Origin: an uncultured Acidobacteriota bacterium
GTDB lineage: Bacteria; Acidobacteriota; Thermoanaerobaculia; Gp7-AA8
DNA: 64,000 bases
Direction: 5' to 3'
Assembly (NCBI GenBank): GCA_963793695.1
Contig: CAWCBB010000025.1
Span: 6,357-70,356, forward strand
A program made the position numbers and the translations under genes. The notes beneath the pieces are model-generated. The model saw only the letters and a program-made list of their open reading frames with translations, did no database searches and had not been told where the DNA came from. Below, one piece after another: positions 6,686-56,010 of this stretch. How positions within the stretch are numbered: the first letter of the stretch is position 1; the number at the start of each line of letters is the position of its first letter.

Positions 6686-6742
6686 TCGAGCCTCCAGCTA
6701 ACAACCAAGTATCATTGGATTGCGTTACTGTGGAGGTCGAAA

Positions 6743-7282: not shown

Positions 7283-7307
7283 CGACGTGGAGCACGTTCG
7301 CCACCGT

Positions 7308-7862
7308 TCAGATTTTCGCGCCTTTTGATCTATTGCATCGTTCGCACAGAAGTTGGACGTTGCGCTCTGTACTGCTTCCACCCCGGGCGATTGGGATGAT
7401 GTGGTCGAACTCCAACGATTCATTGGACCCACATAATACGCACTTGCCAAGGTCTCTCCGCCAAACGGCGTGTCGGACGGACTCAGGTATCGCTGCACGC
7501 TCGCGAATGGCTGCTGTGGTAGCTCCTCGGCCCAGAGCGGACGATTCCCATTCCCGCGAGGCAGCCTCTTCCCGGCGCTGTTTCTGCGCTTGGATTTCTA
7601 CCGCACGTTTGACGGCAGCGATCACTTCGTTCTGGTCAGATTCTGAAGAGAGAACACTGACCGCCGTATCCCTGAAAACCCAGAACGTGGTGTTTCGAAT
7701 GCTGTATATGAGGGGAACACGCTCCACGGTCACAACGTCGGCGTGAGTGAACTCAAAGCCGTTCGGGCGAACCGGAATGGAGAACAGGTCCTCCTCAAGT
7801 TTCAGGACCCTTCCTAGAACGCGGATCTGGAGATCTCGTGTCACGGCAATCCTCTGGCTCAC
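7308..7862 (-). CDS. HNH endonuclease with an uncharacterised ~110-aa N-terminal domain
   Basis: The C-terminus is CVLCGSNESLEFDHIIPIARGGSSTERNVQLLCERCNRSKG, a classic HNH (CxxC...H...N...CxxC) motif. The N-terminal part is not recognisable. GTG start at 7862. Confidence 0.8.
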   Translation of the reverse strand: MSQRIAVTRDLQIRVLGRVLKLEEDLFSIPVRPNGFEFTHADVVTVERVPLIYSIRNTTFWVFRDTAVSVLSSESDQNEVIAAVKRAVEIQAQKQRREEAASREWESSALGRGATTAAIRERAAIPESVRHAVWRRDLGKCVLCGSNESLEFDHIIPIARGGSSTERNVQLLCERCNRSKGAKI

Positions 7863-7919
7863 GGCTGCGGCCAGTAGCGACCTTCTGGCCTCTTGGGACG
7901 CCCGACGACAGAAGAGATT

Positions 7920-7995
7920 TGGTGGCCCCTGTCCGGGTCGAACGGACGGCCTTCTCGGTGTAAGCGAGACGCTCTAACCACTGAGCTAAGGGGCC
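7920..7995 (-). tRNA. tRNA-Val (anticodon TAC), CCA encoded
   Basis: Hand-folded cloverleaf. Acceptor ggcccct/aggggcc, D stem gctc/gagc, anticodon stem tctcg/cgaga with loop cTTACac, T arm gtccg-ttcgacc-cggac, then a-cca. Length 76 nt. Confidence 0.93.
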
Positions 7996-8131
7996 CGAAG
8001 GCATTTTACGGGACCGAAATGAGTCCGTGTAGACACTTTTGTAGACACCTGCCTGAATTCGACAGCCTTTTCTATCTGGTCGTCTCCAGCAGGCACAATC
8101 ACTTCGTTTGGATCTGCCCAACCCCTGAGCT

Positions 8132-9688: not shown

Positions 9689-9792
9689 GCGCGAACCCCT
9701 CACCCGGCCGCGCTGCGCGAACCCCTCGCCCGGCCGCGCTGCGCGAACCCCTCGCCCGGCCGCGCTGCGCGAACCCCTCGCCCGGCCGCGCG
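9689..9792. repeat. 26-bp tandem repeat x4 (gcgcgaacccctcRcccggccgcgct), followed by a ccctctcc...ggagaggg hairpin (9804-9832)
   Basis: Four head-to-tail copies are read directly at 9689, 9715, 9741 and 9767, with a single A/G difference in copy 1 and a changed last base in copy 4. Confidence 0.9.
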
Positions 9793-9867
9793 GCGCGCGG
9801 CCACCCTCTCCCCGCCGTGGGCGTGGAGAGGGATCAGGGAGCGCCTGCGGCGAACCATCGGGGCGAA

Positions 9868-11462: not shown

Positions 11463-12411
11463 ATGCCCGGAGCACTCTTCGTCACCGCAGCCCTCGCCGT
11501 TCTGGTCATCATCGTCCTCGCGAAGACGGCCGTCGTCGTGCCGCAGCAGAACGCCTTCGTCGTCGAGCGCCTCGGCAAGTTCACGCGGCACGCTCGGCGC
11601 CGGCTTCCACATCCTCGTCCCGTTCGTCGACGTGATCCGCTACCGCCACTCGCTCAAGGAGCAGGCGATCGACATCCCCGAGCAGGTCTGCATCACGCGC
11701 GACAACGTCCAGGTCGCGCGTCGACGGCGTGCTCTACCTGAAGGTGCTCGACCCGCGAGCGCGCCTCCTACGGCATCTCGGACTACATGTTCGCCATCAC
11801 CCAGCTCGCGCAGACGACGCTGCGCAGCGAGATCGGCAAGATCGACCTCGACCGCACCTTCGAGGAGCGCACGAACATCAACACCGCGGTCGTCACCGAG
11901 CTCGACAAGGCGTCCGAGCCGTGGGGCGTCAAGGTGCTGCGCTACGAGATCAAGAACATCACGCCGCCGCAGGACGTGCTCGCCGCGATGGAGAAGCAGA
12001 TGCGCGCCGAGCGCGAGAAGCGCGCCGTGATCCTCACTCGGAAGGGCGAGCGCGACGCCGCGATCAACACCGCCGAGGGCGAGAAGCAGCAGGTGATCAA
12101 GGCGTCGGAGGCGAAGCGGCAGCAGCAGATCAACGAGGCCGAGGGCGCAGGCGCAGGCGATCCTCGCGGTCGCCACCGCGACCGCCGAAGGCCTCCGCCA
12201 GGTCGCCGAGGCGATCCAGATGCCCGGGCGGCATGCGAGGCCGTGCAGCTGCGCGTCGCCGAGCAGTACATCGACCAGTTCGGCGAGCTCGCGAAGGACG
12301 GCCAACACGCTGATCCTGCCGGCCAACCTCGCCGACGTCGGCTCGATGATCGCCCTCGCCATGGGAGCGATCAAAGGCCCCGGCGTGGACGCGAAAGCGC
12401 GAATCCCCTAG
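11463..12411 (+). pseudogene. SPFH/band-7 (stomatin/QmcA-like) protein, at least 5 frame breaks in this sequence
   Basis: Fragments across three frames join up: MPGALFVTAALAVLVIIVLAKTAVVVPQQNAFVVERLGKF / GAGFHILVPFVDVIRYRHSLKEQAIDIPEQVCITRDNVQV / MFAITQLAQTTLRSEIGKIDLDRTFEERTNINT...KQMRAEREKRA / ...NTLILPANLADVGSMIALAMGAIKG. Confidence 0.8.
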
Positions 12412-12546
12412 CCGCGCGGGACGCTCAGGACGCCCTGGACCCCGACTCCCTGGACGCGCCTTTGACGCCCCGGGGACGCGTTTGTCACCGGAATCAACCC
12501 AAAGAGGAGGTCCATTCGGGCCGGTTACGCCACATAATTATCGGAC

Positions 12547-13287
12547 GTGCCCATGAGTCCAAAACCCAATCGTCGTCGCGCCGAGAGGATCCGTCTCTCC
12601 AAGCCGTTCGTCTGCCGGTTCGGGACGCATGGGGTCGTGCTCATCGACATCAGCAACTACGGCGCGCGCCTCGAGCATTACAACCGCTTCGATCGGGGCA
12701 CCGAGCGCGTCCTCCGCTTCCGGTGGGGCCGCGAGGAGATCGCGATGCCGGCGAGCATCGTCTCCTGCCGCGTGGAACGATTCGTCCCGGGCGACACCGG
12801 CCTGACCGTCTACCGCTCCGGCCTCCTCTTCTCGCAGCAGGAGGGCCCGGAGTTCGAGAAGGTCAAGAAGATGACCTCTGCGCACGTCGCGACCACGCTC
12901 GTCGAGCAGGTCGCCAACGCCCGCGGCTTCAAGCCGATGACCCGCGACGGCGAGATGCCGATCTTCCGGAACGGGGCGCTCACCTCGAACGACTTCGCCC
13001 TCGACGCCGAAGAGGAGGCGCACCTCCTTCCCGAAAAGGAGCTCGCGCGGCGCGCGGGGTTCATCTGCTACTCCCTCGCGCGCGCGGGGTGGACGCGCAA
13101 GTGGACGCTCGACCCGGTCCAGCCGGAGGAAGGGTTCACCGTCTCGGCGAACGAGACCTGGGAACAGGTCGAGTCCCTCTGCGAGCTCTACCGTCAAAGC
13201 GACGCGGAGGGGCGTCACTTCATCCGCGTCCTCGCCGAGGCGAGCGTCGAGGCGGAGCTCAAGCGGAGCGAGAAGACCAGCGTCTAG
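12547..13287 (+). CDS. PilZ domain protein (c-di-GMP receptor-like)
   Basis: The N-terminus has RRRAERIRL...VLIDISNYGARL, matching the PilZ RxxxR and D/NxSxxG motifs. The ORF is an intact 246 aa. Confidence 0.7.
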   Translation: MPMSPKPNRRRAERIRLSKPFVCRFGTHGVVLIDISNYGARLEHYNRFDRGTERVLRFRWGREEIAMPASIVSCRVERFVPGDTGLTVYRSGLLFSQQEGPEFEKVKKMTSAHVATTLVEQVANARGFKPMTRDGEMPIFRNGALTSNDFALDAEEEAHLLPEKELARRAGFICYSLARAGWTRKWTLDPVQPEEGFTVSANETWEQVESLCELYRQSDAEGRHFIRVLAEASVEAELKRSEKTSV

Positions 13288-13337
13288 ACGCTCTGGACTC
13301 CCTGGACACCCCAGACTCCGGTTATCATCCGCCGGCC

Positions 13338-13883
13338 ATGCGTTTTCTGCCTACCTCTCTTCCCGGCGTGATCGTCATCGAGCCCGACGTGTTCGGCGAC
13401 GAGCGCGGCTTCTTCCTCGAAACGTACCGGAGCGAAGAGTTCGCGGCCGCCGGCATCGATCTGCCGTTCGTTCAGGACAACCACTCCGGCTCGGTGCGCG
13501 GCGTGTTGCGCGGGCTGCACTATCAGGAGCCCTCGCCGCAGGGAAAGCTGATCCGCTGCATCTCCGGAGCGGTCTTCGACGTCGCGGTCGACATCCGGAA
13601 GGGCTCGCCCCACTTCGGGAAGTGGTTCGCCGCCGAGCTCTCCTCGGAGAACAAGCTGCAGATGTGGGTCCCCGCCGGATTCGCGCACGGCTTCTGCGTC
13701 ACGAGCGAGTGGGGAGAGATCGTCTACAAATGCACCGACGTCTGGCGGAAGGAGAACGATCGGGCGATCGCCTGGAACGATCCCGAGATCGGGATCGAGT
13801 GGCCGGTCGCGGAGCCTCTCCTCTCGGCGAAAGACGCGGCCGCACCGACCCTTCGCGATGCGCCGGTGCTCCCCCGCGTGTAG
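13338..13883 (+). CDS. rfbC: dTDP-4-dehydrorhamnose 3,5-epimerase
   Basis: MRFLPTSLPGVIVIEPDVFGDERGFFLETY...RGLHYQ...KLIRCISGAVFDVAVDIRKGSPHFGKW...VPAGFAHGF is the canonical RmlC cupin sequence. It is embedded in the long track ORF 11787-13883. Confidence 0.9.
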   Translation: MRFLPTSLPGVIVIEPDVFGDERGFFLETYRSEEFAAAGIDLPFVQDNHSGSVRGVLRGLHYQEPSPQGKLIRCISGAVFDVAVDIRKGSPHFGKWFAAELSSENKLQMWVPAGFAHGFCVTSEWGEIVYKCTDVWRKENDRAIAWNDPEIGIEWPVAEPLLSAKDAAAPTLRDAPVLPRV

Positions 13884-13936
13884 ATCCTGCGGGCCCACAG
13901 GGACCGGGTGCGCCGATCCGCCTCTCGCGGACGAAC

Positions 13937-13961
13937 AAAAAAGCTCCGATCTCTCGGAGCT
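13937..13961 (-). terminator. Rho-independent terminator downstream of tRNA-Asp
   Basis: The minus strand reads agctccga-gaga-tcggagct followed by tttttg, an 8-bp stem with a 4-nt loop and a T-run. Confidence 0.8.
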
Positions 13962-13976
13962 GATTGCGTGTCAGAG

Positions 13977-14053
<77 letters not shown>

Positions 14054-14163
14054 GCACAGGGTTCGACCGGGTAACTCCCCCGCCGCGGCGTGAATTCCCG
14101 CGGCGGCCCCGGCTCGTGAAGCCGGCGCAGAGTAGCGAGCGGGGAGGGCTATGTCAAGAAATC

Positions 14164-16346
<2,183 letters not shown>

Positions 16347-16509
16347 GGGCGGCGTCGGCTGTTCCACGCCCTTCGCAGCGACCGCGTCATGCGCCATTGC
16401 ATGGGCTTGCCAAAATTCTAGCGACCCACCGCCGACCCGGACATATATTGCGGTCGAGCCGGCATGAGAAGAATTCGCCGGCCAATGTCGGGCGCGCTCT
16501 AGCGCGCCG

Positions 16510-16548
16510 AAACACCCCTTCGATGGCCACGGAGGGGTGTTTGTTTTT
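16510..16548 (+). terminator. Strong rho-independent terminator
   Basis: aaacacccct (16510-16519) pairs with aggggtgttt (16533-16542) across a 13-nt loop and is followed by gttttt. It is preceded by two further perfect hairpins (16458-16482 and 16491-16508). Confidence 0.8.
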
Positions 16549-16575
16549 CGTGTCGGGGGTCTTTGGCGTCGGGCG

Positions 16576-17913
16576 TCAGGAGTCCGCGCTCACCGAAGCC
16601 TCTCGCGGGCGCGCCAGAGCCTCCCAGCCGAATACGAAGGCGACGAATGCTGCAGGAATGAGAAGCTGCGCGAGCAGGCGCGGCCACGAGGTCGCGACGT
16701 GCCATGCGACCTCGTGAGGGGTGACGAGATACGCCCCCAGGAAGAATGCGAGCTGGAGGGCGAGGGCGACCAGGAGAAGGCGCTCGCGCGAGAGGCAGCG
16801 GGCGCCCGCGGCGAGGATCGCGACGGCGGCCGCGAGCCAGAAGAGCGCGTGCTCGGGCGGATTCGCGGCGAGCGCTTCGAGGGTCGCCGACGGCGACGCC
16901 GCGGCCGCGGCGAGGCGAGAGAGCGGCTCCCCACCGAACAGGTCGGTGCCCAGACCGTGCATGCGGCGCAGCGCGATCCAGCACGCTGCCGCCGCTCCCG
17001 CGGGTGCGGTCGCGAGGAGCAGGCTCCACCGCCTCGCGCCTCCGGCGACCAGGATCGCGATCGCCGTGGCGACCGTCAGCGCGATCCCCTCGTTCTTGGT
17101 GAGCGCCGCGAGCGCGAGCGCCGCGGCGGCGATCGGCATCCTCCCCTCGCGCCGGTCGACGATCGCGCTCCTCGACTCGAGCAGCGCGATCCCGCCGAAG
17201 ACGAGCAGCGGAAGGTCCGCGAGCCCGATGGGGACCGAGAGCACCGGGCCGGCGAGCGCCGCCGCTCCGGCCGCCGCGAGAAGGGGCGAGCCGGTCGCCT
17301 CCCCCAGGTGGGCCGCGGTGAAGAGAAGAATCGACGCCGCGAGCACCGTGAAGAGAAGGCCCAACTCGCGCTCGGGCCAGGAGCCTGCGAGCGAGGCCGC
17401 GAAGTCGTACCCGAGCGGAACGAGGATCGGGTAATCGGGATGAGCGAACTCGTTCGCCGGCCGCTCGAGCCATCCCCAGTCGACCGCCGCCGCCTCGTGG
17501 AAGACCTTCCCCTTCAATCCCCAGATCGCCCAGAAGTCCCACTCCCCAGGCGGCGCGAGAGTCGCGAAAAGAGCGTGGCCGATCCCCATCGCCGCGACGG
17601 CCGCTCCTGCCAGCCATGCGACGGTCCGCGTCGATCCGTTCTCCACGGCGCGCGGCGCGCCCGCGCGACGGCCGCGCGCGACCGCCGTCGCCGAAAAGAC
17701 CGCGAGAAGGATCGAGATCGCGGCGAGAACCGACGCGCGCGACCAGGCGACGCCGATCGCGGAGAGAACGCCCATCGCCAGGGCGCACGCGCCGAGTCCG
17801 ATCGGAAACGAGAGAGCCGCCAGCCGCCCTCCCCTCGCGCGCGGGTCGAGCGCGAGGACGATCGCCCCTCCGGCGATCCCGGCGATTGCGATGGAGACGA
17901 GGACCGCGATCAT
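16576..17913 (-). CDS. Polytopic membrane protein, GT-C (ArnT/PMT_2-like) glycosyltransferase candidate
   Basis: Intact 445-aa ORF with ten or more hydrophobic helices and an ...ALAALTKNEGIAL... segment. The function call rests on general resemblance only. Confidence 0.6.
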   Translation of the reverse strand: MIAVLVSIAIAGIAGGAIVLALDPRARGGRLAALSFPIGLGACALAMGVLSAIGVAWSRASVLAAISILLAVFSATAVARGRRAGAPRAVENGSTRTVAWLAGAAVAAMGIGHALFATLAPPGEWDFWAIWGLKGKVFHEAAAVDWGWLERPANEFAHPDYPILVPLGYDFAASLAGSWPERELGLLFTVLAASILLFTAAHLGEATGSPLLAAAGAAALAGPVLSVPIGLADLPLLVFGGIALLESRSAIVDRREGRMPIAAAALALAALTKNEGIALTVATAIAILVAGGARRWSLLLATAPAGAAAACWIALRRMHGLGTDLFGGEPLSRLAAAAASPSATLEALAANPPEHALFWLAAAVAILAAGARCLSRERLLLVALALQLAFFLGAYLVTPHEVAWHVATSWPRLLAQLLIPAAFVAFVFGWEALARPREASVSADS

Positions 17914-18347
17914 CGGGCGCTCCGCCTCAGAAGGGCGCTCCCCTCTCCGTCCCAGATCCGTACGAATCCGGGGATCCGCGGCGACATCCGCCAGGCCGCC
18001 ACGTAGTCGGCCCCGCGAAGGCGCTCGAGATGCGCGGCGTCATCGCGGTCGACCAGAGGGATCACCTCGCGCGCCGTGAGCGCATAGCTGGCGCGGTAGT
18101 ACGCGTACTCGTAGCCGCCGTTCCAGCGGCGCATCGGGACGACGATCGCGACACGGGCGCCTTCCGGCGTGCGGTTCCGCACTTCGCGCAGAAACGCGGC
18201 GTACCCGGGAGCGGCGCGGTCGGGCGCCTCGGTCAGCTCGACCCCGGCCACGGCGCGATCCGCGAAGAAGACGCGAAAGAAGAACGGCTCGAACCCGCCG
18301 AGAAGCATCGCGGCGAGCAGGATCGCGTAGAGCGCACGCCGGAACAC
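17910..18347 (-). CDS. Membrane-anchored hypothetical protein, coupled to the downstream GT-C-like gene (ATGA overlap)
   Basis: The C-terminal 130 aa of track ORF 17910-18527 looks like real protein, with TM segment ALYAILLAAMLLGGFEPFFF. I place the start at GTG 18347 because the upstream part of the ORF runs through the repeat element. The start is uncertain. Confidence 0.5.
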   Translation of the reverse strand: MFRRALYAILLAAMLLGGFEPFFFRVFFADRAVAGVELTEAPDRAAPGYAAFLREVRNRTPEGARVAIVVPMRRWNGGYEYAYYRASYALTAREVIPLVDRDDAAHLERLRGADYVAAWRMSPRIPGFVRIWDGEGSALLRRSAR

Positions 18348-18354
18348 GCCGACG

Positions 18355-18815
18355 AGTCTAGGGGTCAAGGCGTCTGGGAGTCCAGGCGTCTGGGTCCGTC
18401 CCTTCGGATCTCTTGCTGAATCGACGGCGGCGCGAGATCTTCCCCTCTCCCCGGCGCGATCGTTTCGAGTGCATGGCTGGCGTTCCGGGGAGAGGGTAAG
18501 GGTGAGGGGCCTGCGAGGGTCGCCCATGTGAACCCCTCACCCCTTGCCCCTCTCCCCGGAACGCGATCCTCTTCTCGCGCCTCATTCCGCCGGGGAGAGG
18601 GGGAAGAGACGCGCGGCTGCTCAAGCCTCGCAGACTCTAGACGCCCAGGACTCCCCAGACGCCCAGACGCTGAGACGCTGAGACGCCTCGACGCCTAGAC
18701 GCTTAGACGCCCCAGACGCTTAGACGCCCCAGACGCTTAGACGCCCAGACGCCTAGATGCCCAGACGCCTAGACGCCCAGACGCTTAGACGCCCAGACGC
18801 TTAGACGCCGACGGG
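18355..18815. repeat. Composite intergenic element with inverted G-N-GTCT-N-G tandem-repeat arms around three REP-like hairpins
   Basis: The left arm is gagtctaggggtcaaggcgtctgggagtccaggcgtctggg. The core holds cccctctccccgg...ccggggagaggg twice (18441-18495 and 18546-18602) plus aagggtgagggg...cccctcacccctt. The right arm (18630-18815) has about 20 copies of cagacgcc/tagacgct (8-9 bp units). Confidence 0.9.
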
Positions 18816-19661
18816 GTGCCAGACCGTCTTCATCTCGAGGAACTCGGCGATCGCGTAGAGCGAGGGCTCGCGATCGCCCTCGCGATGGTCTGCGCCGACG
18901 ATCCGCTTCACGTTCTCGGCGGCGGCTTCTTCCGCCGCTCGCCGGATCGCATCGTCCTCGACTCCGCCGAGGTCGATCGCGTTCACGTCCATGTGCGCGG
19001 CGAGCCAGGGAACGAGCTCTTTCTTGAGGCCCGAGATCAGGTTGATGACGCCGGCGGGAACGTCGGACGTCTCGAAGATCTCTCCCATCGTGATCGCGGC
19101 GAGCGGCCGCGATTCGGACGTGAGCGCGACGGCCGTGTTGCCTCCGACGATGGCCGGCGCGACGCGAGAGACGAGCCCCAGCAGGGCGGGGGTCTCCGGA
19201 GCGACGACGCCGACCACGCCCGTCGCCTCGGGGAACGTGAAGTTGTAGTAGGGACCAGAGACGGTGTTGACGCTGCCGAGGATGTGCGTGAACTTGTCGG
19301 CCCACCCCGCGTAGTAGACCCAGCGGTCGATCGAGCTCTCGATCTCCTTGCGAGCGTCGCCCTTCGACGCGCCGGCGCGCCGCAGCTCCTCTTCCAGCTC
19401 CGCCGCGCGCGACTCGAGCACCTCGGCGATCCGATACAGGATCTGGCCCCGGTTGTACGCGGTGCGCCCGCTCCATCCGGAGGCCGCCTTCCGCGCGGCG
19501 ACGACGGCGTTCCGGAGGTCCTTGCGCGATCCGCGGCATGCATTCGCGAGCAATGCGTCCCCCTCACCGGAATACACCGGATAGAACCTCCCCGACTCGG
19601 TGCGGGGAAACTCGCCGTTGATGTAGAGCTTGTACGTCTTGCGGATTGGTAATCGACTCAT
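18801..19661 (-). CDS. ALDH-family protein lacking the catalytic domain (286 aa, intact)
   Basis: It has the N-terminal ALDH NAD-binding region (GVVGVVAPETPALLGLVSRVAPAIVGGNTAVALTSE...VPAGVINLISG...) and the ALDH-type C-terminal tail (FLEMKTVW). There is no ELGGK/catalytic-Cys segment, and the only Cys is near the N-terminus. Confidence 0.75.
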   Translation of the reverse strand: MSRLPIRKTYKLYINGEFPRTESGRFYPVYSGEGDALLANACRGSRKDLRNAVVAARKAASGWSGRTAYNRGQILYRIAEVLESRAAELEEELRRAGASKGDARKEIESSIDRWVYYAGWADKFTHILGSVNTVSGPYYNFTFPEATGVVGVVAPETPALLGLVSRVAPAIVGGNTAVALTSESRPLAAITMGEIFETSDVPAGVINLISGLKKELVPWLAAHMDVNAIDLGGVEDDAIRRAAEEAAAENVKRIVGADHREGDREPSLYAIAEFLEMKTVWHPVGV

Positions 19662-19707
19662 CCGTTTCTCAATTCTGATCTCGTCTATCGGTAGAGGACC
19701 TCAGACA

Positions 19708-19784
19708 TCAGGCCCCAGGCCTCAGATCTCATGTCGCCGGTCCCGGTCTGAGGCCGGAGGCCGGAGGCCTGAGGCCTGAGGCCT
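19708..19784. repeat. Hairpin-forming 7-bp tandem repeat (GGCCTGA/GGCCGGA units) between the two ALDH genes
   Basis: cctcagacatcaggccccaggcctcagatc on the left is approximately the reverse complement of ggtctgaggccggaggccggaggcctgaggcctgaggcc on the right. Confidence 0.75.
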
Positions 19785-19785
19785 T

Positions 19786-21294
19786 CTACGATAACCGCAC
19801 GTATGCCTCGAGCCCCTGCATGCCGCCTTCGCGGCCGAAGCCCGATTCCTTGTAGCCGCCGAAGGGAGAGGTGGGGTCGAACTTGTTGTAGGTGTTCGCC
19901 CAGACGACGCCGGCGCGGAGCTTCTGCGCGATCTTGAAGATCTTGCGAGCCCTTGTCGGTCCAGACGCCGGCCGAGAGGCCGTACGGCGTGTTGTTCGCC
20001 TTCTCGATCGCTTCCTCGGGCGTGCGGAACGTCATGACCGAGAGCACCGGGCCGAAGATCTCTTCCTGCGCGATGCGGTGCGACTGCGCGACGCCGGTGA
20101 AGAACGTCGGCGGGAACCAGAAGCCGCGGGCCGGGAGCGCGCAGGCGGACTGGAACAGCTCCGCTCCCTCGTCGACCCCGCTGTCGACGAGCTCGCGGAT
20201 CTTCTCGAGCTGCGCCCGCGAGTTGATCGCGCCGACGTCCGTGTTCTTGTCGAGCGGATCGCCGAGGCGCAGCGTGCCGATGCGGTCGCGGAGCTTGCGG
20301 ATGACCGGCTCGGCGACCGACTCCTGCACGAGGAGCCGCGAGCCCGCGCAGCAGACGTGCCCCTGGTTGAAGTAGATGCCGTTGACGATGCCCTCGACCG
20401 CCTGGTCGAGCGGCGCGTCCTCGAAGACGATGTTCGCCGCCTTGCCGCCGAGCTCGAGCGTCAGCCGCTTTCCGGTTCCCGCGGTCGCGCGCTGGATGCG
20501 CTTGCCGACCTCGGTCGAACCGGTGAAGGCGATCTTGTTCACGCCGGGTGGTTGACGAGCGCCGCGCCGGTCGCGCCCGCGCCCGTGATGATGTTGACGA
20601 CGCCGGGCGGCAGGTCCGCCTCCTGGAAGATCTCCGCGAGCATCATCGCCGTCAGCGGCGTCGTCTCGGCGGGCTTGAGGACGACCGTGTTGCCGCAGGC
20701 GAGCGCCGGCGCGATCTTCCACGCGGCCATGAGCAGCGGGAAGTTCCACGGGATGATCTGCCCGCAGACGCCGACGGGGCTCACCTTCCGGCGCGGGAAG
20801 GCGTACTCGAGCTTGTCGGCCCAGCCCGCGTAGTAGAAGAAGTGGGCCGCGGCGAGCGGGATGTCGACGTCGCGCGACTCCTTGATCGGCTTGCCGCCGT
20901 CCATCGTCTCGAGTGACCGCGAGCTCGCGCGACTTCTCCTGCATCGATGCGCGCGATCCGGAAGATGTACTTGCCCGCTCGGAGGGCGAGAGCTTCGACC
21001 AGACCTTCTCGTAGGCGCGGCGCGCTTCCTTCACGGCCGCGTCCACGTCCGCGGCGTCCGCTTCCGCCACTTCCGCGAGCACCTCCTCGGTCGCGGGGTT
21101 GATCGTCGGGAAGTAATTCTTCGAGTGGGGCGCGACGAACTTGCCGCCGATGAAAAGCTCGTATCGGCTGCGATCCGGACGTGGTCGACGGCTTCGCGCG
21201 AGGGGGCGTACTCCCAGCCGGCCGCCATCGGCGACGCGGGTCCGGGCTTGAGGCGCTCGAGCGCTCCTGCGGGATCGTGGATGGTCTCAGTCAT
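19786..21294 (-). pseudogene. NAD(P)-dependent aldehyde dehydrogenase, several frame breaks in this sequence
   Basis: MTETIHDPAGALERLKPGP... / [27 protein letters not shown] / [54 protein letters not shown] / FTGSTEVGKRIQ...LTLELGGKAANIVF...NQGHVCCAGSRLLV...EEIFGPVLSVMTF. The fragments lie in three frames. I place the stop at 19786-19788. Confidence 0.85.
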
Positions 21295-21374
21295 GGTTTC
21301 GTCCGTCTAGAAGTGAAGTTCTGTCATGCTGAACGTTGAACGTCGGGATGACATGCGGCATCGACATTCCATTC

Positions 21375-22347
21375 TTATTGACCATCGACGAAGCAATCCA
21401 GCGTGAAGTAGTCCGCCGACTGGTACGCTCCGGTCGTTTCTTTCCGGAGCTGCATCAGGATGTCGTTGAGGAGCGAGCTCGCGCCGAAGCGGAACCGGTC
21501 GGGGGTCATCCAGCGCGGCCCGAGGGTCTCGTGGAGCGTGACGAGGTACGCGAGGGCGAGCTTCGCATTCGAGATCCCGCCGGCCGGCTTCATTCCGATC
21601 TCGATCCCCGTCCGATGGTGAAAGTCGCGGATCGCCTCGAGCATGACGAGCGTGACCGGAAGGGTCGCGCCGACGCTGATCTTGCCCGTCGACGTCTTGA
21701 TGAAGTCCGCCCCGGCGTACATCGCGATCATCGAGGCTTTCCGGACGTTGTCGTAGGAGCCGAGCTCGCCGGTCTCGAGAATGACTTTCAGATGCGCGGG
21801 CCCGCACGCTTCCTTCACGGCGCCGATCTCGTCGAAGACCCGCTGGTAGTCGCCCGCGAGCAACGCGCCGCGGTTGATCGACCATGTCGATCTCGTCGGC
21901 GCCCATCGCGACCGCGCGGCGCGTCTCGTCGAGCTTCACCTCGAGCGGGGTCTGTCCGCTCGGAAATCCGGTCGCGACCGCGGCGGTCTTCACGCCGCTT
22001 CCTTCCAGCGCGCGGCGGACGTGGGGCACCATGTTCGGATAGATGCAGACGGCGGCGACCGACGGAACGGAGCTGTCGGAGGGATCGGGACGGATCGCTT
22101 TCTGGCAGAGCGCGACCACCTTGCCCGGGGTGTCTTTCCCTTCGAGGGTCGTCAGGTCGATCATGCTGATGGCGAGCCGCAGCCCCGCGACCTTCGATTC
22201 CTTCTTGAGCGAGCGCTTCGCGAGCGAGGCGGCGCGCTCCTCGACGCCGACCTGGTCGACGGCGACGACGCTGCCCAGAGCATCGGCAAGGCTCCCGCGG
22301 GATGCGGCCTGAAGGTGCTGCGGCTTCGCCTGGATCATCTGGGACAT
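21375..22347 (-). CDS. deoC: Deoxyribose-phosphate aldolase (long form), one frame break near 21870
   Basis: ...ISMIDLTTLEGKDTPGKVVALCQKA...AAVCIYPNMV...TAAVATGFPSGQ...GADEIDMV / LAGDYQRVFDEIGAVKEACGPAHLKVILETGEL...GADFIKTSTGK... Start MSQMIQAKPQ at 22347. Confidence 0.85.
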
Positions 22348-22506
22348 GGCGGTAGGAGTCTGGGGTCTCGGAGTCCGGAGTCTAGGGATCGGGTCGGAGG
22401 CCGGCAATCCGCTTCGCGGTCACCCGGAGCGAAGCGACGAAGGGCGTCCTCGGGATGACCGGCGGGGGCGGCCGCAGGCCGCCCCTGGGTTCGCCGCGTC
22501 TTGCCG

Positions 22507-24444
22507 CTAATCGATGCGGGCCGGGGAGACCCTGCCCGTCGGGGCCGTCGGCGGCGGCAGCGCGACGACGCGCTGTCTGCCCGAGTTCGCCTGGACCGGC
22601 CGCCAGGAGGTCCCTTCGAGGACCCAGAGGTCGGAGAGGTAGTAGCCCGCATAGCCGCCGTAGAGGATGAACTGCTGGAGCGTCGGGTCCCACGCGAGGC
22701 GGGCGTTCTGGCGCGCGGTCGGAACGCGGCTGCCTTCGACCTTCGTCCACTTCGCGCCGTCGAACACCCAATGCTCGTTGATGAACTCGACCTTCTCGTT
22801 CGATCCGCCGAACATGTGGATGCGGTTGTCGGCCGGATTGAACGCGACCGCGGCGCCATAGCGCGCCGGCGGCGAGCTCGCGGTGGTCAGCTCGACCCAG
22901 TCCTTCCCGTTGAAGGTCCAGGTGTCGGCGAACCGGATGAGCAGGCCGTCGCGCTCCTTTCGGCCGATGCCGCCGGAGAGAACGACTTTCTTCTGCACCG
23001 GGTCGTAGAACATCGCCGTGAGCGCGCGGTAGAACGGCTTCTTGCCGTCGATCTTGGCCCAGCTCGCGCCGTCCCAGGTCCAGGTCTCGTTGATGTAGTC
23101 CCCGTTGTATCCGCCGAAGACGATCGTCTTCTTCAGCGTCGGATCGTACGCGATCGATGCCTGGATGCTCGTCAACGGGCGTTTGTCCGGACTGGAGAAC
23201 CGCTTCCATTGCGTGCCGGCGAACTCGTAGACCGACGCGTCCGAGCAGAGGAGGACCATCACCTTCCGGTCGCTATCCCACGTGCTCACCGGATAGGAGC
23301 AGGTCGCGGGAGCGTCGAGGGCGATGACCGGGGTCCACTGTCCCGAGGCGTACCTCCAGAGGTCGGCGCCACCGCGCACGCCTCCGAAGAGCCACACCGC
23401 CCCATTCTCCGGATCGCTCGTGAACCCGAACATCGAGCGCGCGCCCGGCGTCACGCCGGACCAGGCGCTCTTCCATTTCGAGTCGCGGTAGCGGTACGTG
23501 TAGTCGACCTCGTACCCCAGGTCGTAGTCGGTTCCCCCGAAGAGGATCGTCTCGCCGCGCGCTTCGTCGTACGCCATCGCGTGGCCGAAGACGAGGCCGG
23601 CGGAGCCGGTTCCCTCGACGGCTTTCCAGTTCGTGCCGTCCCACTCCCAGGTCGCGCCCGGGACGAGGCCGGTCAGGCAGGCCCCGCCGTACAGGAGGAC
23701 GTTGCCGCTGAACTCCTGCCAGACCGCGACGGCGCGGCTCAGGCAGAACGGCAGCGTCTCGGGCGTGAGCTGCTCCCATCCGGGATTCGTGTAGCGGTAC
23801 ATCACGCTGGTGCTGTCGGACTTCATCCCGACCAGCAGGGTCTCGTCGCGCGTGCCGTCGTAGACCATGACCGCGGAGTTCACGTCCGGACCGTCATCGC
23901 CCGTTTTCGTCCAGGTCGTCCCGTCGAACTCCCATGTGTCGCGCAGGTTCGCGTCCGCCGTCGCGCCGCCGAAGAGGATGACGCGGTTTCGGACGCGGTC
24001 GAACGCCGCTGCGGCGTACTTCCTCGCGCTCGGATGGTCGGGGACGTCCAGCTTCTGCCACTCGCTGCTGCGGAACTCCCAGGTGTCGTCCAGATGGACG
24101 GCTCCCGAGCCGATGCCGCCGAACAGGATCGCGCGCTGGGCAAACGAGTCCCAGACGAACGCGAAACCGCCGCGCGGGCTCGGACTCGCGGAAGGGAAGA
24201 GCTGGATCCAGCGGCGCCCGTTCCAGGCCCACGTCTCGTCGATGTAATCGCGGGCGAACTGCTCCTCGCCGCGGATGAACGCCGGGGTCGCGCCGCCGAA
24301 GACGATCGGGCGCTTGGCGACTTCGTCGAAGACCATCGCGGCGGTCGTCCGCGGGGACGGCTGCGCCAGAAGAGAGAGGGGAGCGAGGAGAAGGAAAGCC
24401 ATCGCGGCGAGGAAGCGCCGGAGAGAGAGCGAGTTCAAATTCAT
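22507..24444 (-). CDS. Secreted Kelch-repeat beta-propeller protein
   Basis: Signal peptide MNLNSLSLRRFLAAMAFLLLAPLSLLAQ. It has about 12 repeats of the pattern ...FGG...DTWEWDG..W.... The ORF is intact. Confidence 0.8.
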   Translation of the reverse strand: MNLNSLSLRRFLAAMAFLLLAPLSLLAQPSPRTTAAMVFDEVAKRPIVFGGATPAFIRGEEQFARDYIDETWAWNGRRWIQLFPSASPSPRGGFAFVWDSFAQRAILFGGIGSGAVHLDDTWEFRSSEWQKLDVPDHPSARKYAAAAFDRVRNRVILFGGATADANLRDTWEFDGTTWTKTGDDGPDVNSAVMVYDGTRDETLLVGMKSDSTSVMYRYTNPGWEQLTPETLPFCLSRAVAVWQEFSGNVLLYGGACLTGLVPGATWEWDGTNWKAVEGTGSAGLVFGHAMAYDEARGETILFGGTDYDLGYEVDYTYRYRDSKWKSAWSGVTPGARSMFGFTSDPENGAVWLFGGVRGGADLWRYASGQWTPVIALDAPATCSYPVSTWDSDRKVMVLLCSDASVYEFAGTQWKRFSSPDKRPLTSIQASIAYDPTLKKTIVFGGYNGDYINETWTWDGASWAKIDGKKPFYRALTAMFYDPVQKKVVLSGGIGRKERDGLLIRFADTWTFNGKDWVELTTASSPPARYGAAVAFNPADNRIHMFGGSNEKVEFINEHWVFDGAKWTKVEGSRVPTARQNARLAWDPTLQQFILYGGYAGYYLSDLWVLEGTSWRPVQANSGRQRVVALPPPTAPTGRVSPARID

Positions 24445-24587
24445 CGGCTGCGGGCCCTTTGGAGACACGATCTAAACTGCAGAAACGACTGCGATTGAGA
24501 CGTTCGAGGGTGGCCAACGGTCACGGGGGGGCCTAAATTCCGTAATTTGGCGCGCTCGGATCTCGCCGGGGTCACGAGCAGAAGAAG

Positions 24588-24684
24588 AATGCACCATGCA
24601 AAATGCAGCATTGAAAGTCCGGCAAAGGGCCACCCGCGAGCCACTTTTTGTATTGTTAATGTTGCATGGTGAATTTTGCATTGG
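24588..24684. promoter_or_regulatory. AT-rich TGCA-rich inverted-repeat region upstream of the Kelch gene (candidate operator, promoter or structured leader)
   Basis: caccatgcaa (24592-24601) is the exact reverse complement of ttgcatggtg (24662-24671). The left arm carries three TGCA motifs at a 7-nt period (tgcaccatgcaaaatgca). This is an AT-rich patch within the high-G+C region. Confidence 0.35.
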
Positions 24685-24721
24685 CCGCCGCAGGCGGCGT
24701 TGGTCCCGCGGCCGCGCCCGT

Positions 24722-25798
24722 CTACTCGTCCCGCACCAGCCGCCCCGCCCTCCCCGGATCCTGCCGTCTCTCCCTTCGCGCGACGAAGGCTTCCTCGAAG
24801 GTGACCTGAATGATCGCCGAGACGGGGATCGCGAGGATCGCTCCGATGATGCCCAGAAGCGATCCGCCGATGAGGAAGGCGACGAAGATCGCGAGCGGAG
24901 AGATGGACATCTTCTCCCCCATGATCCGCGGCACGAGCAGGTAGTTCTCGACCTGCTGGATCACGATGGCCCCGATCAGGACTCCCCAGAACTGCCAGGG
25001 CGAGAGGAAAAGGGCGATGATGACCGCCGGAATCGCGCTCAGGATCGGGCCGAGGACCGGGATCATCTCCCCGATTCCCGCGACGAGCGCCAGCGGGAGC
25101 GCGTAGGGGATCCGCAGCGCGAGCAGGAGAACGAACGTCGCGCTCCCCACGATCAGCGCCAGCAGGAGCTGCGCGGCCAGCCAGGAGCTCATCCGGCGGG
25201 AGAGGCGGAGGATCGTCTTCCGTCTCCTTCCCCGTTCGCGGGCGGGATAGAAGAGGAGGAAGAGGTTCCGCAGCCGTTCCGCGTCGACCATCATGTAAAC
25301 GATCAGGACGAGGACGATCACGATCGACGCGACCAGGCTCACCGCACCTTTGATGTAGGGAAACAGGTCGACGTCGGCCGGGCCCGTTGCGAGGAGCTTG
25401 CGGAGCTCGTCCACCGGCAGATAGGGCGCGAGGGGAAGGATGATGTTCTCCTCGACGAGGACTGGCAGCCGCACCGCCATGTCTCTCCCCTCGACGAGCA
25501 GGTGCGGGAGTCCGAAGATCGCGAAGAGGGCCGCGGCGACGAGAAAGGGGACGTAGACGAGCACCACCGCCGTGCCGCGGCGGATCCTCCGGTGGAGATA
25601 GTGGCGCGTCAGGACACGCACGCGGTGGACGGCCGGAGAGACGCCCGAGGCGAGGATGCCGGCGATCAGGATGAGGATGAGGATCCTCTGGATGTTCCAG
25701 AGAAACACGATGCCGATCGCGACGGCCGCGGCGATGAGGACCTTCCGCGTGAAGAGGTGAAGCTCGCTCTCGTCCTCTCTCACCCTGTCTCCCTTCAC
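24722..25798 (-). CDS. AI-2E family transporter (PerM-like permease)
   Basis: ...LRIPYALPLALVAGIGEMIPVLGPILSAIPAVIIALF...IQQVENYLLVPRIMGEKMSISPLAIFVAFLIGGSLLGIIGAILAIPV is the hallmark C-terminal motif set. The start is uncertain (GTG 25798 or 25783). Confidence 0.85.
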   Translation of the reverse strand: MKGDRVREDESELHLFTRKVLIAAAVAIGIVFLWNIQRILILILIAGILASGVSPAVHRVRVLTRHYLHRRIRRGTAVVLVYVPFLVAAALFAIFGLPHLLVEGRDMAVRLPVLVEENIILPLAPYLPVDELRKLLATGPADVDLFPYIKGAVSLVASIVIVLVLIVYMMVDAERLRNLFLLFYPARERGRRRKTILRLSRRMSSWLAAQLLLALIVGSATFVLLLALRIPYALPLALVAGIGEMIPVLGPILSAIPAVIIALFLSPWQFWGVLIGAIVIQQVENYLLVPRIMGEKMSISPLAIFVAFLIGGSLLGIIGAILAIPVSAIIQVTFEEAFVARRERRQDPGRAGRLVRDE

Positions 25799-26236
25799 GC
25801 CAGGTACTGAGCGATCGCCTGCCGGATCTGCCCCTCGCCGACGGCGCCGACGAGCCTCCCCTTCTCCCGGCCGCTCGACAGGAAGACGAGCGTGGGGATC
25901 CCCTGGACGGCGAACGACGCGGCGGTTCGTGGATTCTCGTCGACGTTGACCTTGGCGAAGGCGATGTCGGTGCGCGAGGCGGCGAGCGACTCGATGACGG
26001 GAGCGATGGTCCGGCAGGGGCCGCACCACGGCGCCCAGAAATCGACCACCATCGCGCGCTCCGCCTGCGCCCGCGTCGTGAACGTCGCGTCCGTGAGAAC
26101 GACCGGCGCGCCGGCGCCCGCCGCCGCGTTCAATTCAGTCTTGCATCTCCCACAACGAACACCCTTCCCGCCCGAATCCCGCGGGGATCCGATTCGCCTG
26201 CCCACACGAGGGGCAGCGGACGACCGTGCCTTCCAT
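25795..26236 (-). CDS. trxC: Thioredoxin 2-type thioredoxin with N-terminal zinc finger; one frame break near 26160
   Basis: My translation from ATG 26236 gives MEGTVVRCPSCGQANRIPAGFGREG. After a shift it continues VRCGRCKTEL...VVDFWAPWCGPCRTIAPVIE...FAKVNVDENP...GIPTLVF. It matches my recollection of E. coli Trx2 (C..C...NRIP...CGRC, WCGPC). Confidence 0.85.
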
Positions 26237-26488
26237 GGTGCGATCTCCTCAGGTCGGGTCCGGTTGCGAAGACCGCGCCCACCGCCCGCCCTCACGCGTC
26301 GACGCGGCACCCGGAGGCGTCAGGGGCGTAGCCGGGGCGTCACGCGCAGCGCGACCCCCGGAGAGGGGTGCCGAACGAATCCAGGCACCCCGGCAGGGGT
26401 GCCAGAGGAACCCGTGCGCCCCCGCCCAGACGCGGGCGAGACCCCGCCCCACGACTCCCGAGACGCCCCAGACGCTACACTCCCCGCG

Positions 26489-27441
26489 ATGCGGTTTCGC
26501 GACGCGACGATCGAAGACCTCGAGGCGATTCGGAAGCTCATCGCGGACGCGAACGACACGCCGTACGACCTGGCGCGCGTCGCCGAAGAGAAGTGCTTCG
26601 GGGAGGGGCCGCACGGGATGCCGGAGACGATCGTCGCCGACGCGGGCGGGAGGCTGGACGGCGTCATTACGTTCACCTCGCGCGGCGTGCGCGTGATCGC
26701 GGTGCGGCGCGAGCGACGATCGCGAAAGGATCGGCTCGAGTCTCATCCGGATGTTCGAAAAGCGCCTCGGCTCGAATGCGGGGAAGATCGTGATCTACGG
26801 CGAGGCGGGAAACTACTACCTCCCCGGAGTTCCGGAAGAGGATCTCGCGACCTGCGGATTCTTCGAGCAGCATGGGTATGTCGCGGAAGAAGAGCGAGCG
26901 GTGAATCTCGCCGTGGATCTCGCGAACAACCCGATGCTCCCCCACCCGGGGGCGGGCGGGACGCCCGCACCACACGCGGCTCACGACACGACGAGCTCAC
27001 GACAAAGCATCGAACGCGCCGGGGAAACTTCGCGCGACGAGCTGCTCGAGTTCATCGCCAACCAGTTCGGGCGCATCTGGAGCTGGGAGACCGCGCGCGC
27101 GTTCCGCAACGATCCGCCGACCGCGTTCCTCGCGCGGGACACCTCCGGGCACATCACCGGGTTCTCCGCGCACGAAGCCAATAACCGCGGCCTGGGGTTC
27201 TTCGGCCCGATGGGGACGGACGAAGCGACGCGCGGGCAGGGAACCGGGCGGACGCTTCTCCTCGCATCCCTCGCCGACCTCCGCGCCCGCGGCTTCCGTG
27301 AGGCCGTCATCTCCTGGGCGGCGAACGCCCCGTTCTACGAGCGCGCGTGCGGCGCGCGCCCCTCGCTCCGTATGGTACGGTTCTCGAAAGTCGTACGAGG
27401 AGGACGGCGGGGTCAGGGAAAGGCCGGACGAAACGGGATGA
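26489..27441 (+). pseudogene. Tandem-GNAT N-acetyltransferase; two or more frame breaks
   Basis: MRFRDATIEDLEAIRKLIADAN...GVRVIAV / RIGSSLIRMFEKRL... / second GNAT HITGFSAHEANNRGLGFFGPMGTDEATRGQGTGRTLLLASLADLRARGF. In a third frame a TGA at 27439-27441 overlaps the next ATG (ATGA), which I take as the real stop. Confidence 0.7.

Positions 27442-49245: not shown

Positions 49246-56010
<6,765 letters not shown>

Follow-up and report, generated by a model that had tools for sequence, protein, structure and literature searches.

Which sequences occupy the space between the genes of a large bacterial genome, and what makes and keeps them there? The question is raised by a stretch of 64,000 nucleotides from an uncultured soil acidobacterium of the class Thermoanaerobaculia (Gp7-AA8; assembly GCA_963793695.1, contig CAWCBB010000025.1, positions 6,357 to 70,356 of the forward strand), referred to below as the window. 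Its gaps between genes are filled by fast-changing runs of 7-9-base repeats, the largest of which lies within positions 18355-18815. Tandem arrays of 7-9-bp units are among the commonest unexplained intergenic features of large bacterial genomes, and here they occupy most gaps of a 56-kb stretch. Judged by their sequence, the arrays are tandem runs outside coding DNA that vary greatly, often come in pairs, can form hairpins and have a set orientation with respect to genes, and they are best classed as short tandem repeats (5-11-nt units) of the type described as long simple sequence repeats (LSSRs) or STRR (short tandemly repeated repetitive) sequences. We further propose, with somewhat more than even confidence, that slippage makes and resizes them at gene boundaries, that they form hairpins between transcription units, and that the start-proximal arm overlaps the promoters of leaderless genes.

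An intergenic family of tandem repeats

A preliminary description of the window had listed a series of arrays, and Tandem Repeats Finder (TRF) together with inspection of the 64-kb sequence found the described repeat at each of its coordinates. The consensus given there, G-N-GTCT-N-G, proved accurate. In 81 units from 15 loci aligned on the GTC core, G occupies position 1 in 100% and position 8 in 83-88%, T occupies position 6 in 65%, and positions 2 (A 42%, C 43%, G 12%) and 7 are free; these units were drawn from arrays found by the family's own consensus, the G at position 1 not being imposed by the search. The distance from one GTC to the next is 8 bp (n = 36), 9 bp (n = 14) or 7 bp (n = 10). 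The unit of the main family is thus mostly 8 bp long; other arrays in the window and in relatives consist of true heptamers. The two-unit pattern GNGTCTNNGNGTCT occurs 20 times in the window (0.28 expected from dinucleotide shuffles) and the four-unit pattern 4 times (0 expected).

According to TRF, the largest array (18639-18809) contains 20.9 copies of an 8-bp unit, and a 16-bp super-unit AGACGCCCAGACGCTT in 9.4 copies fits it better. Within 18355-18815, the left array reads GAGTCTAG GGGTCAAG GCGTCTGG GAGTCCAG GCGTCTGG; it is followed by a centre of 236 bp and then by AGACGC-type units up to 18809. Companion unit families detected by TRF are CTGAGGC (5.3 copies, 19748-19784), AGGAAGT (14.9 copies, 32140-32243) and, at the 44-kb gap, TCCGTTC (7.7 copies, 44530-44583) and ACGGAGA (8.4 copies, 44701-44760). 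Array copy numbers range from 2 to 22.

A self-trained codon-usage model tolerating frameshifts scored 19% of the GC-rich part of the window as non-coding, and 90% of the array bases (n = 918) fall within this fraction. Together with TRF and the shuffle counts, this bears out the earlier claim of a pervasive intergenic family accompanied by arrays of locus-specific 7-mers. The overlap of arrays with stop codons was also correctly noticed (e.g., TAG at 13285-13287, the stop at 48838-48840, the open reading frame (ORF) end at 32162). The tetranucleotide CTAG is rare in the window as a whole (31 sites, 83 expected), and 15 of the 19 sites in the GC-rich 56 kb lie inside arrays. The neighbours of the arrays are housekeeping genes, e.g., those for methionyl-tRNA synthetase (MetRS), DeoC and aldehyde dehydrogenase (ALDH). 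The arrays and associated elements are listed below; for the G-N-GTCT-N-G family, plus or minus names the strand whose sequence gives the unit in this form, and L numbers denote loci of other genomes, described further on.

12419-12470, minus strand: array of about six units (GGACGC-type on the plus strand), upstream of a plus-strand gene
13280-13325, minus strand: perfect palindrome GCGTCTAGACGC, then three GAC-N-C units, then TATCAT-N9-ATG (13338); the TAG of the palindrome (13285-13287) is the stop codon of the upstream plus-strand gene
14164-14192, plus strand: 5' arm of a hairpin, GAGTCTKG x3.6, in the divergent region between tRNA-Asp and the MetRS gene
14264-14339, minus strand: 3' arm of this hairpin, about nine AGACTCYS units, ending in TAGACT 8 nt before the MetRS ATG (14346)
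16556-16592, plus strand: degenerate four-unit array over the stop codon (16576) of the minus-strand gene for a 445-aa protein; also present in L121
18354-18394, plus strand: start-proximal arm of five units; the minus strand reads ...CCTAGACTC-N7-GTG, the start of gene 17910-18347 (minus)
18395-18630, no strand: hairpin loop with two nested palindromes resembling repetitive extragenic palindromic (REP) elements, a separate repeat family
18631-18809, minus strand: largest array, about 21-22 GCGTCTRR units on the minus strand, beginning within the last codons and stop (GGC GTC TAA) of the 286-aa ALDH-like gene 18801-19661 (minus)
19700-19784, minus strand: inverted pair between two ALDH genes, GGCCTCA x5 then TGAGGCC x3 on the minus strand, beginning directly after the stop codon of the upstream gene
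22356-22383, plus strand: four-unit array upstream of a DeoC-family gene (ATG 22347, minus); orthologous array in L122 and L126
26428-26475, minus strand: about five units, then TACACT-N7-ATG (26489, plus); orthologous array in L122
32140-32243, plus strand: AGGAAGT x14.9, a single array containing the stop of the upstream plus-strand gene (ORF end 32162); the unit also makes a hairpin at another gap in L125
34383-34419, plus strand: about five units; the minus strand ends in TAGACT-N8-ATG (start 34376)
37908-37921, minus strand: two units AGACGCCTAGACTC, then N8 and ATG (37929, plus)
44530-44760, no strand: inverted pair TCCGTTC x7.7 (44530-44583) and ACGGAGA x8.4 (44701-44760) around a REP-like palindrome (44613-44669)
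47033-47057, plus strand: weak three-unit array upstream of TAAAAT-N7-ATG (start 47018, minus)
48809-48852, plus strand: GGGGTCTA x5.5, containing the stop (48838-48840) of a minus-strand ORF, upstream of TATGAT-N9-ATG (48776, minus)
62227-62264, plus strand: four to five units between the stop of gene 62263-63414 (minus) and TACACT-N7-ATG of gene 61424-62212 (minus)

Inverted pairs and hairpins

Sites that had been taken as single arrays do hold the repeats, but several of them are inverted pairs rather than single arrays, and about half of the arrays are arranged in this way. In the window, the pairs are 14164-14192/14264-14339, 18354-18394/18631-18809, 19700-19727/19748-19784 and 44530-44583/44701-44760. 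Folded as RNA, they give minimum free energies of -306.5 kcal/mol (z -11.9) for 18340-18830 on the minus strand, -87.6 kcal/mol (z -4.85) for 14150-14350 on the plus strand, -170.4 kcal/mol (z -11.5) for 44515-44775 on the plus strand, and -65.3 kcal/mol (z -5.4) for 19690-19795 on the minus strand. The 44515-44775 palindrome reaches from the TGA stop of one convergent gene to the stop of the other. Of 22 arrays in the syntenic relatives, 14 are accompanied by an inverted partner no more than 300 bp away, and none by a direct one. Over the window and the relatives together, the G-N-GTCT-N-G family forms five inverted pairs, and in each of them the G-type arm comes first (5') and the C-type arm second (3'). 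The arms evidently expand independently of each other, judging from their inequality (about 22 units versus 5 at the largest hairpin), from the 16-bp super-unit of one arm, and from seven identical AGACGCCCA units in only one of the arms of L125.

The nested palindromes in the loop of the largest hairpin (18442-18497 and 18547-18602) have the form CCCCTCTCCCCGG-N30-CCGGGGAGAGGG. For the REP-like palindrome CCCCTCTCCCCGG-N30-CCGGGGAGAGGGG, we counted 8 near-matches against 0.36 expected, with occurrences in the loops 18395-18630 and 44584-44700; besides the two sites just given, it is found at 44613-44669 and in L126 (3900-4120). It seems to be a separate dispersed family landing inside existing hairpins. 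Furthermore, GCAGAAT/ATTCTGC hairpins recur at four loci in three genomes (L122 4128-4252 and 11872-12012; L125 836-972; L126 1213-1345). Arms of about 45 nt, including decayed inner units, are common to all four loci, as is a non-repeat inner stem (GAAGAATCCAAAAAG/CTTTTTTGGATTCTAC), and the loops are unrelated. This hints at a copying of whole arms between loci.

Orientation and putative promoters of leaderless genes

The arrays had been thought to occur regardless of gene orientation, which is not the case. At each of the 12 loci in our own tally over the window and the relatives, the sense strand of the neighbouring gene carries the array as (A/G)GAC-N-C (two-sided binomial p ~0.0005). G-type arrays in sense are confined to 5' hairpin arms that follow a stop codon directly, in line with the arm order of the five inverted pairs. 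Most array-adjacent genes have a TANNNT-like hexamer 6-9 nt (once 12 nt) before the start codon, often at the very end of the array:

MetRS, 14346: TAGACT-N8-ATG
start 18347: TAGACT-N7-GTG
start 26489: TACACT-N7-ATG
start 34376: TAGACT-N8-ATG
start 37929: TAGACT-N8-ATG
start 47018: TAAAAT-N7-ATG
start 62212: TACACT-N7-ATG

By eye, no obvious Shine-Dalgarno sequence precedes the array-adjacent starts. We infer that TANNNT at this distance from the start is the -10 box of a putative leaderless mRNA, and leaderless transcription may be common in this lineage. The same layout is found at genes counted as array-free (TACAAT-N6-GTG at 40251, TATGAT-N9-ATG at 48776, TATCAT-N9-ATG at 13338). In L127 and L129, which do not have the DeoC array, TAACGT stands at the same position upstream of DeoC. 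In phase-variation contingency repeats, which sit within a coding sequence or set promoter spacing, an altered copy number switches a gene, usually a surface gene, on or off. The present arrays are located outside coding sequence and upstream of the -10-like box, so that the local geometry is preserved when whole units are gained or lost. There is a weak possibility that array units also act as a -35 element: the units three periods upstream would offer T[AG]GAC at 18-bp spacing, which matches at 4/6 positions only, and the 13338 site breaks this geometry. At loci with similar units in other Acidobacteriota and Gemmatimonadota, a start codon follows 10 of 32 arrays and a -10-like box 1 of 32, so that the promoter link appears to be lineage-specific.

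Distribution and orthologous gaps

For the intact 286-aa ALDH-like protein (18801-19661, minus strand), the nearest homologues bear the names Thermoanaerobaculia or Acidobacteriota; no exact-sequence record was found for either the 145-aa or the 445-aa product of the window. A scan of one genome per GTDB species for four consecutive units returned at least 119 loci. The matches listed come from Acidobacteriota, Gemmatimonadota, Planctomycetota, Cyanobacteria, Verrucomicrobiota, Bacteroidota and Chloroflexota, and from Sorangium, Streptomyces, Deinococcus and others. These loci show no DNA similarity to the window, and their protein matches were uninformative. Some of them have the same architecture with other units in TRF (L109, CGGAGACG/CTCCGCGT and GTCCAAA/GGACTTT; L098, AAACTAA/TTTAGTT; L005, ACGCGAAG/TCTTCGCG). 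Of the 424 arrays among the matches listed (119 loci), 96 have an inverted counterpart no more than 300 bp away, and 37 loci have at least one inverted pair.

Syntenic loci share the order DeoC, ALDH (501 aa), ALDH-like (286 aa), 145-aa gene, 447-aa gene and convergent MetRS; the 145-aa and 447-aa genes are not present in L127-L129. Protein identity is 99% for L121, 92% for L122-L124, 91% for L125 and L130, 88% for L126, 82% for L127 and L128, and 81% for L129. Three gaps could be compared, i.e., the one after the 286-aa gene, the one between the two ALDH genes and the one between DeoC and the 501-aa ALDH gene:

Window: 453-bp hairpin after the 286-aa gene; GGCCTCA pair between the ALDH genes; no array between DeoC and ALDH
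L121: 59 bp with the C-type arm only; GGCCTCA pair; DeoC gap not covered
L122: 54 bp, no array; ALDH genes overlap; AGATGGGAC pair
L125: 255-bp hairpin, GGGTCTAG x5 and GCGTCYAGG x4, then AGACGCCCA x9; GGAAGTA pair; GCAGAAT pair
L126: hairpin GCGGATT x8 ... AATCTGC x6 around REP-like palindromes; 14-mer pair; GCAGAAT pair
L130: 11 or more GCGTCTAG units, running up to where the contig ends; CAGTTCT pair; AGATGGGAC-type pair
L127: different gene order after the 286-aa gene; ALDH genes overlap; no gap between DeoC and ALDH
L129: no array; 20-nt gap, no array; GAAGAGT array with a weak inverted copy

Thus, across relatives with 81-99% protein identity, one and the same gap holds no array, one arm, or a hairpin of unrelated units. 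L121 differs from the window after the 286-aa gene by a 396-bp indel beside flanking DNA that is 98.6% identical. Upstream of the MetRS, DeoC, 145-aa and acetyltransferase genes, G-N-GTCT-N-G arrays have kept place and orientation at about 85% DNA identity, and only the number and order of units differ between relatives.

The C-terminus of the 286-aa protein (...WHPVGV*) is conserved family-wide, and a metagenome scan for the gene end KTVWHPVGV* gave 120 matching ends, nearly all array-free and mostly from distant homologues. GGC GTC TAG is therefore the native gene end, and the arrays attached to it are, by this comparison, lineage-specific. The first units copy each lineage's own synonymous variant of the gene end (GGCGTCTAA in the window, GGGGTCTAG in L125), which points to local seeding and homogenisation by slippage. 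Slippage or palindrome growth, which the preliminary description had offered as a possible origin, is indeed reasonable in view of the unequal arms, the super-unit and the turnover of gaps between relatives. In the metagenome contig L194 (1039-1188), three copies of KTVWHPVGV* are spaced 60 nt apart, and after another 60 nt comes a fourth that has diverged slightly, evidently a tandem duplication of the gene 3' end.

Relatives with no array, with one arm or with unrelated hairpins at the same gap are natural experiments on transcript 3' ends, insulation and leaderless promoters. The features that deserve to be followed are the replacement of unit families at one gap, the polarity with the G-type arm first, and the fixed junction with -10-like boxes.

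Assembly quality and independent confirmation

Could the arrays be artefacts of assembly or sequencing? The window assembly does contain many 1-nt indels. Compared with the 99% identical L121, it has 20 gap openings in 3.5 kb, mostly 1-nt indels and, by eye, mostly outside homopolymer runs. Essential-looking genes show many frame changes (MetRS, 14346-16400; ALDH, ~19790-21295; the region ~52300-56000), the ALDH gene requiring at least four and the MetRS gene many; these are likely assembly indel errors rather than pseudogenes. As many 1-nt indels look like such errors, the exact array copy numbers in the window are uncertain. Furthermore, at least 12 arrays among the scan loci lie at the very end of public contigs, which therefore appear to break inside them. 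However, an independent contig (L001, Logan assembly of run ERR10755943) matches window positions 18739-19863 in 1122 of 1125 bases, carries even the imperfect unit GGGCATCTAGG, and itself ends inside the array. The same architecture is present in L121, L125, L126, L127 and L130, which stem from other runs and sources, in JGI, ENA and NCBI assemblies of relatives, and in complete genomes (e.g., Sorangium, Streptomyces). We consider an artefact scarcely credible.

In practice, the arrays break short-read assemblies (L001, L130 and at least 12 of the scan loci end inside them). They also produce spurious ORFs, such as those of 205 aa and 88 aa across 18358-18624 and a 67-aa gene call in L125, and they could be used as strain-typing markers.

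Relation to known repeat classes

According to the preliminary description, no described repeat class behaves in this way. In fact, three do: LSSRs (PMC4679880, PMC4692102), STRR sequences (PMC2670836) and G-rich heptamers (PMC4692102). What is new here is an octamer family with companion heptamer families in Thermoanaerobaculia; the class itself has already been described. We found no specific literature on inverted tandem arrays or on such repeats in Acidobacteria.

LSSRs (Mrazek, Guo & Shah 2007), as summarized in PMC4679880 and PMC4692102, have units of 5-11 nt, mostly heptamers, are enriched in large GC-rich genomes and attributed to slippage. The arrays of the window likewise consist of head-to-tail units of 7-9 nt that run beyond chance length (TRF periods 7-9, up to 20.9 copies) and lie mostly in non-coding DNA of a large, GC-rich, non-pathogen genome. 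LSSRs also share with them the proposed slippage origin and the occurrence in scattered phyla, copy number and sequence here varying at the gaps of L121, L122, L125-L127, L129 and L130. They differ in that the commonest unit here is 8 bp rather than 7 and the acidobacterial host is outside the taxa named in these two papers; neither the pairing of inverted arrays nor the replacement of unit families at one gap belongs to the LSSR description as summarized there.

STRR heptamers of cyanobacteria form intergenic hairpins, e.g., between hupS and hupL and upstream of hoxW; they have been suggested to act in transcript stability, in translational coupling or in termination (PMC2670836). To judge from the title of Vioque (1997), cited in PMC7593598, they occur inside an RNase P RNA gene as well. 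The arrays studied here resemble them in their tandem intergenic units and hairpin potential (z -4.85 to -11.9), but STRR sequences have their own unit sequences and filamentous or heterocyst-forming cyanobacterial hosts, whereas the acidobacterium has different units, a dominant 8-mer family, strict sense-strand orientation and abutment to -10-like boxes.

The G-rich heptamers GGGAATC and GGGGA(C/T)T of Xanthomonas and Nostoc are distributed genome-wide and strongly non-coding (Rehm et al. 2015, PMC4692102). Within 50 bp upstream of an ORF, their G-rich strand is the antisense one, and within 50 bp after a stop it is the sense one; they may overlap the stop codon, inverted arrangements have been noted, no tie to surface or phase-variable genes exists, and length and sequence vary widely at the same gaps of close relatives (PMC4692102). 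The rule of strand and position, the stop overlap and the variation between relatives are those of our arrays. Unlike here, with 2 to 22 copies and most arrays incapable of forming G-quadruplexes, these heptamers prefer four copies, and G-quadruplexes have been demonstrated for them. The TAACTGA direct repeats of marine Beggiatoaceae stand just upstream of start codons without ribosome-binding sites (MacGregor 2015, PMC4679880). They too are intergenic heptamer arrays that recur across distant phyla, but have one fixed unit, mostly in 2-6 copies and in 169 direct sets versus 1 indirect, for which translational regulation has been proposed (PMC4679880).

The preliminary description had left a match to REP elements or bacterial interspersed mosaic elements (BIMEs) as a possible refutation. 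The arrays are not of this kind: their units are 7-9 bp, non-palindromic and directly abutting, whereas a REP unit is an imperfect palindrome of 20-40 bp whose head, GTAG or CGTC, is conserved, as summarized in PMC3733652. REP elements, BIMEs and REPINs are similarly abundant intergenic hairpin-formers often found just after stops, REPINs being inverted pairs, and stabilisation of mRNA has been proposed for REP elements; however, they are not head-to-tail 7-9-mers, and only the nested CCCCTCTCCCCGG loop palindromes are REP-like here. A CRISPR array, which needs 23-55-bp repeats and unique spacers, was rejected because the units abut without spacers. To our knowledge, neither Neisseria DNA uptake sequences (GCCGTCTGAA, often in inverted pairs) nor the -10 elements of extracytoplasmic function sigma factors (CGTC/GTCTAA) form tandem arrays; the same holds, as far as we know, for Type IIS sites (GAGTC, GACGC), Chi and Rho utilisation sites, and all of these candidates would leave the other unit families unexplained. 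A search of the whole window at Rfam gathering thresholds returned only two tRNAs.

Origin and possible function

How might such arrays arise? Slipped-strand mispairing would create and resize arrays of 7-9-bp units where they are tolerated, i.e., between a stop codon and the next promoter or start. Many of them may be seeded from a short palindrome (GCGTCTAGACGC at 13280) or from the last codons of a gene (GGC GTC TAA). If the two sides of a seed expanded separately, an inverted pair would result, its 5' arm being of G-type and its 3' arm of C-type; the seed-like palindrome GCGTCTAGACGC, in which the TAG serves as stop codon, would account for the invariable 5' place of the G-type arm. The seed palindrome GTCTAGAC was rejected as an abundant motif (19 matches with up to 1 mismatch, 19.6 expected; one perfect copy, at 13282). 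Less certainly, a transcribed pair would form a long stem-loop between neighbouring transcription units, most likely acting as a barrier that shields the upstream transcript at its 3' end, or as partial insulation, and not by canonical termination. The arm beside the downstream gene would overlap the promoter of a leaderless mRNA, with the last unit (TAGACT) or the next hexamer (TACACT, TAAAAT) serving as putative -10. Such an overlap would explain both the strict orientation of the G-N-GTCT-N-G units and their persistence upstream of the same genes in relatives.

Several observations weigh against this proposal. Slippage alone leaves unexplained the position-specific conservation at 15 loci (G1, G3-T4-C5 and G8 fixed; 2 and 7 free) and the recurrence of a few unit families at unrelated loci and genomes (e.g., GCAGAAT). 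The gene model behind the intergenic test is crude, many genes of the window being frameshifted. A stringent sigma-70 scan of 12000-27000 found no promoter, so that the case for a promoter link is built on TANNNT boxes placed at a constant distance before start codons and not on matches to the full consensus; -35-like matches are weak (T[AG]GAC only, 4/6, often at 18-19 bp spacing), and the other unit families are unlike promoter elements.

The conservation of positions is the main support for a different explanation, in which the arrays bind a sequence-specific protein or RNA that recognises G-N-GTC/GAC-N-C every 8 nt, in DNA or in the transcript, and that maintains unit and orientation in place of neutral slippage. 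It would also account for the family being kept upstream of the MetRS, DeoC, 145-aa and acetyltransferase genes with changed unit order, and for CTAG being avoided elsewhere and concentrated in arrays. However, no candidate factor was identified, and the 8-bp period is unlike the helical repeat of DNA; the number of copies ranges from 2 to 22, and orthologous gaps of close relatives lack arrays with no consequence to be seen. Selection of the units by the family consensus could, moreover, have inflated their conservation (G1, present in 100%, was not imposed). As other gaps use unrelated units with the same architecture, this architecture is independent of the G-N-GTCT-N-G sequence. We regard a binding factor as unlikely, if worth bearing in mind. 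G-quadruplex formation, as proposed for GGGNATC of Xanthomonas and Nostoc, would agree with the rule of strand and position (PMC4692102) and with the GGG/GGGG runs of a few arrays (48800-48826, 26442-26469). Nevertheless, of about 15 arrays only 2 show the four-tract G3+ pattern, closely spaced G-tracts are missing from the dominant units GCGTCTAA, GCGTCTGG and GAGTCTTG, and the GGCCTGA, TCCGTTC and GCAGAAT families are incapable of G-quadruplexes; for most arrays this candidate was rejected, and as a general explanation it is very improbable. Inverted arrays acting as terminators, intrinsic or hairpin-only, that separate adjacent genes are suggested by the long stable hairpins at or beside stop codons, by the 44530-44760 palindrome that extends exactly from stop to stop of a convergent pair, and by the proposal of the same role for STRR hairpins (PMC2670836). 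A terminator role had been raised in the preliminary description too. In its canonical form it fails, because no T-tract directly follows any array hairpin in the window, and classical hairpins with T-tracts lie elsewhere (behind tRNA-Asp, 13961-13942, and behind MetRS, 16510-16542). Of 17 terminator-like sites in 12000-27000, none is inside an array, in a scan that allowed only loops of 3-8 nt and was blind to long-loop hairpins. Furthermore, some pairs are located in divergent promoter regions (14164-14339), hairpins separate genes that abut or overlap in relatives (L122), suggesting an operon, and many arrays are single-armed. Termination, with or without a U-tract, is thus quite improbable.

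The hairpins might instead be non-autonomous mobile elements with tandem-repeat arms, similar to REPINs or miniature inverted-repeat transposable elements and spread by a transposase encoded elsewhere; REP elements are mobilised by RAYT (Y1 HUH) transposases. The GCAGAAT hairpins of L122 (two loci), L125 and L126, with common arms and GAAGAATCCAAAAAG/CTTTTTTGGATTCTAC stem and differing loops, speak for this, as do the different families at the same gap in sister lineages, the limited set of unit families recurring across genomes, and the REP-like CCCCTCTCCCCGG palindromes nested in loops. Target-site duplications or conserved element ends were not seen, though, and no transposase is among the ten window ORFs scanned against Pfam, which speaks only weakly for its absence. 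The G-N-GTCT-N-G arrays lack any conserved part besides the repeats. Arms differ in length and grow separately, the sequence of the local gene end is taken up into arrays, and single-arm arrays are common. Mobility has, in our view, a rather small chance of being the explanation. We give a similarly low weight to the idea that a sequence-independent directed process builds inverted 7-9-bp arrays at the gene boundaries of many bacterial phyla, the G-N-GTCT-N-G units having been co-opted in this Thermoanaerobaculia lineage as a modular promoter/insulator cassette of leaderless genes with the last unit as -10. Candidates for such a process would be hairpin-templated (quasi-palindrome) copying combined with slippage, or a dedicated enzyme; if it were real, the same gap could be rebuilt repeatedly from different units with its function kept.

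Other features of the window

Positions 1-8000 have about 55% GC, compared with about 67% in the rest, and end at a tRNA-Val gene (7920-7995, minus strand). They encode a protein with the C-terminal domain of DISARM DrmE (2625-4793, minus) and an HNH endonuclease (7308-7862, minus), contain no tandem arrays, and are probably an acquired defence island. After MetRS, a non-coding block of about 110 nt (16400-16542) ends in the canonical terminator at 16510-16542 (plus strand). It is conserved in L121, L122, L125, L127 and L129 (motifs, e.g., CTAGAATTTTGGCAAGC and GCGCGCTCTAGCGCGCC), has no Rfam match and could be a small RNA or a structured 3' untranslated region. A different kind of repeat is present at 9689-9797, where the 26-bp unit GCGCGAACCCCTCGCCCGGCCGCGCT is repeated 4.2 times with 97% identity. 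At 49736-52224, a 276-bp unit repeated 9 times with 85% identity lies inside a long coding ORF (49246-52311, plus strand); this is a protein-domain repeat, unrelated to the intergenic arrays.

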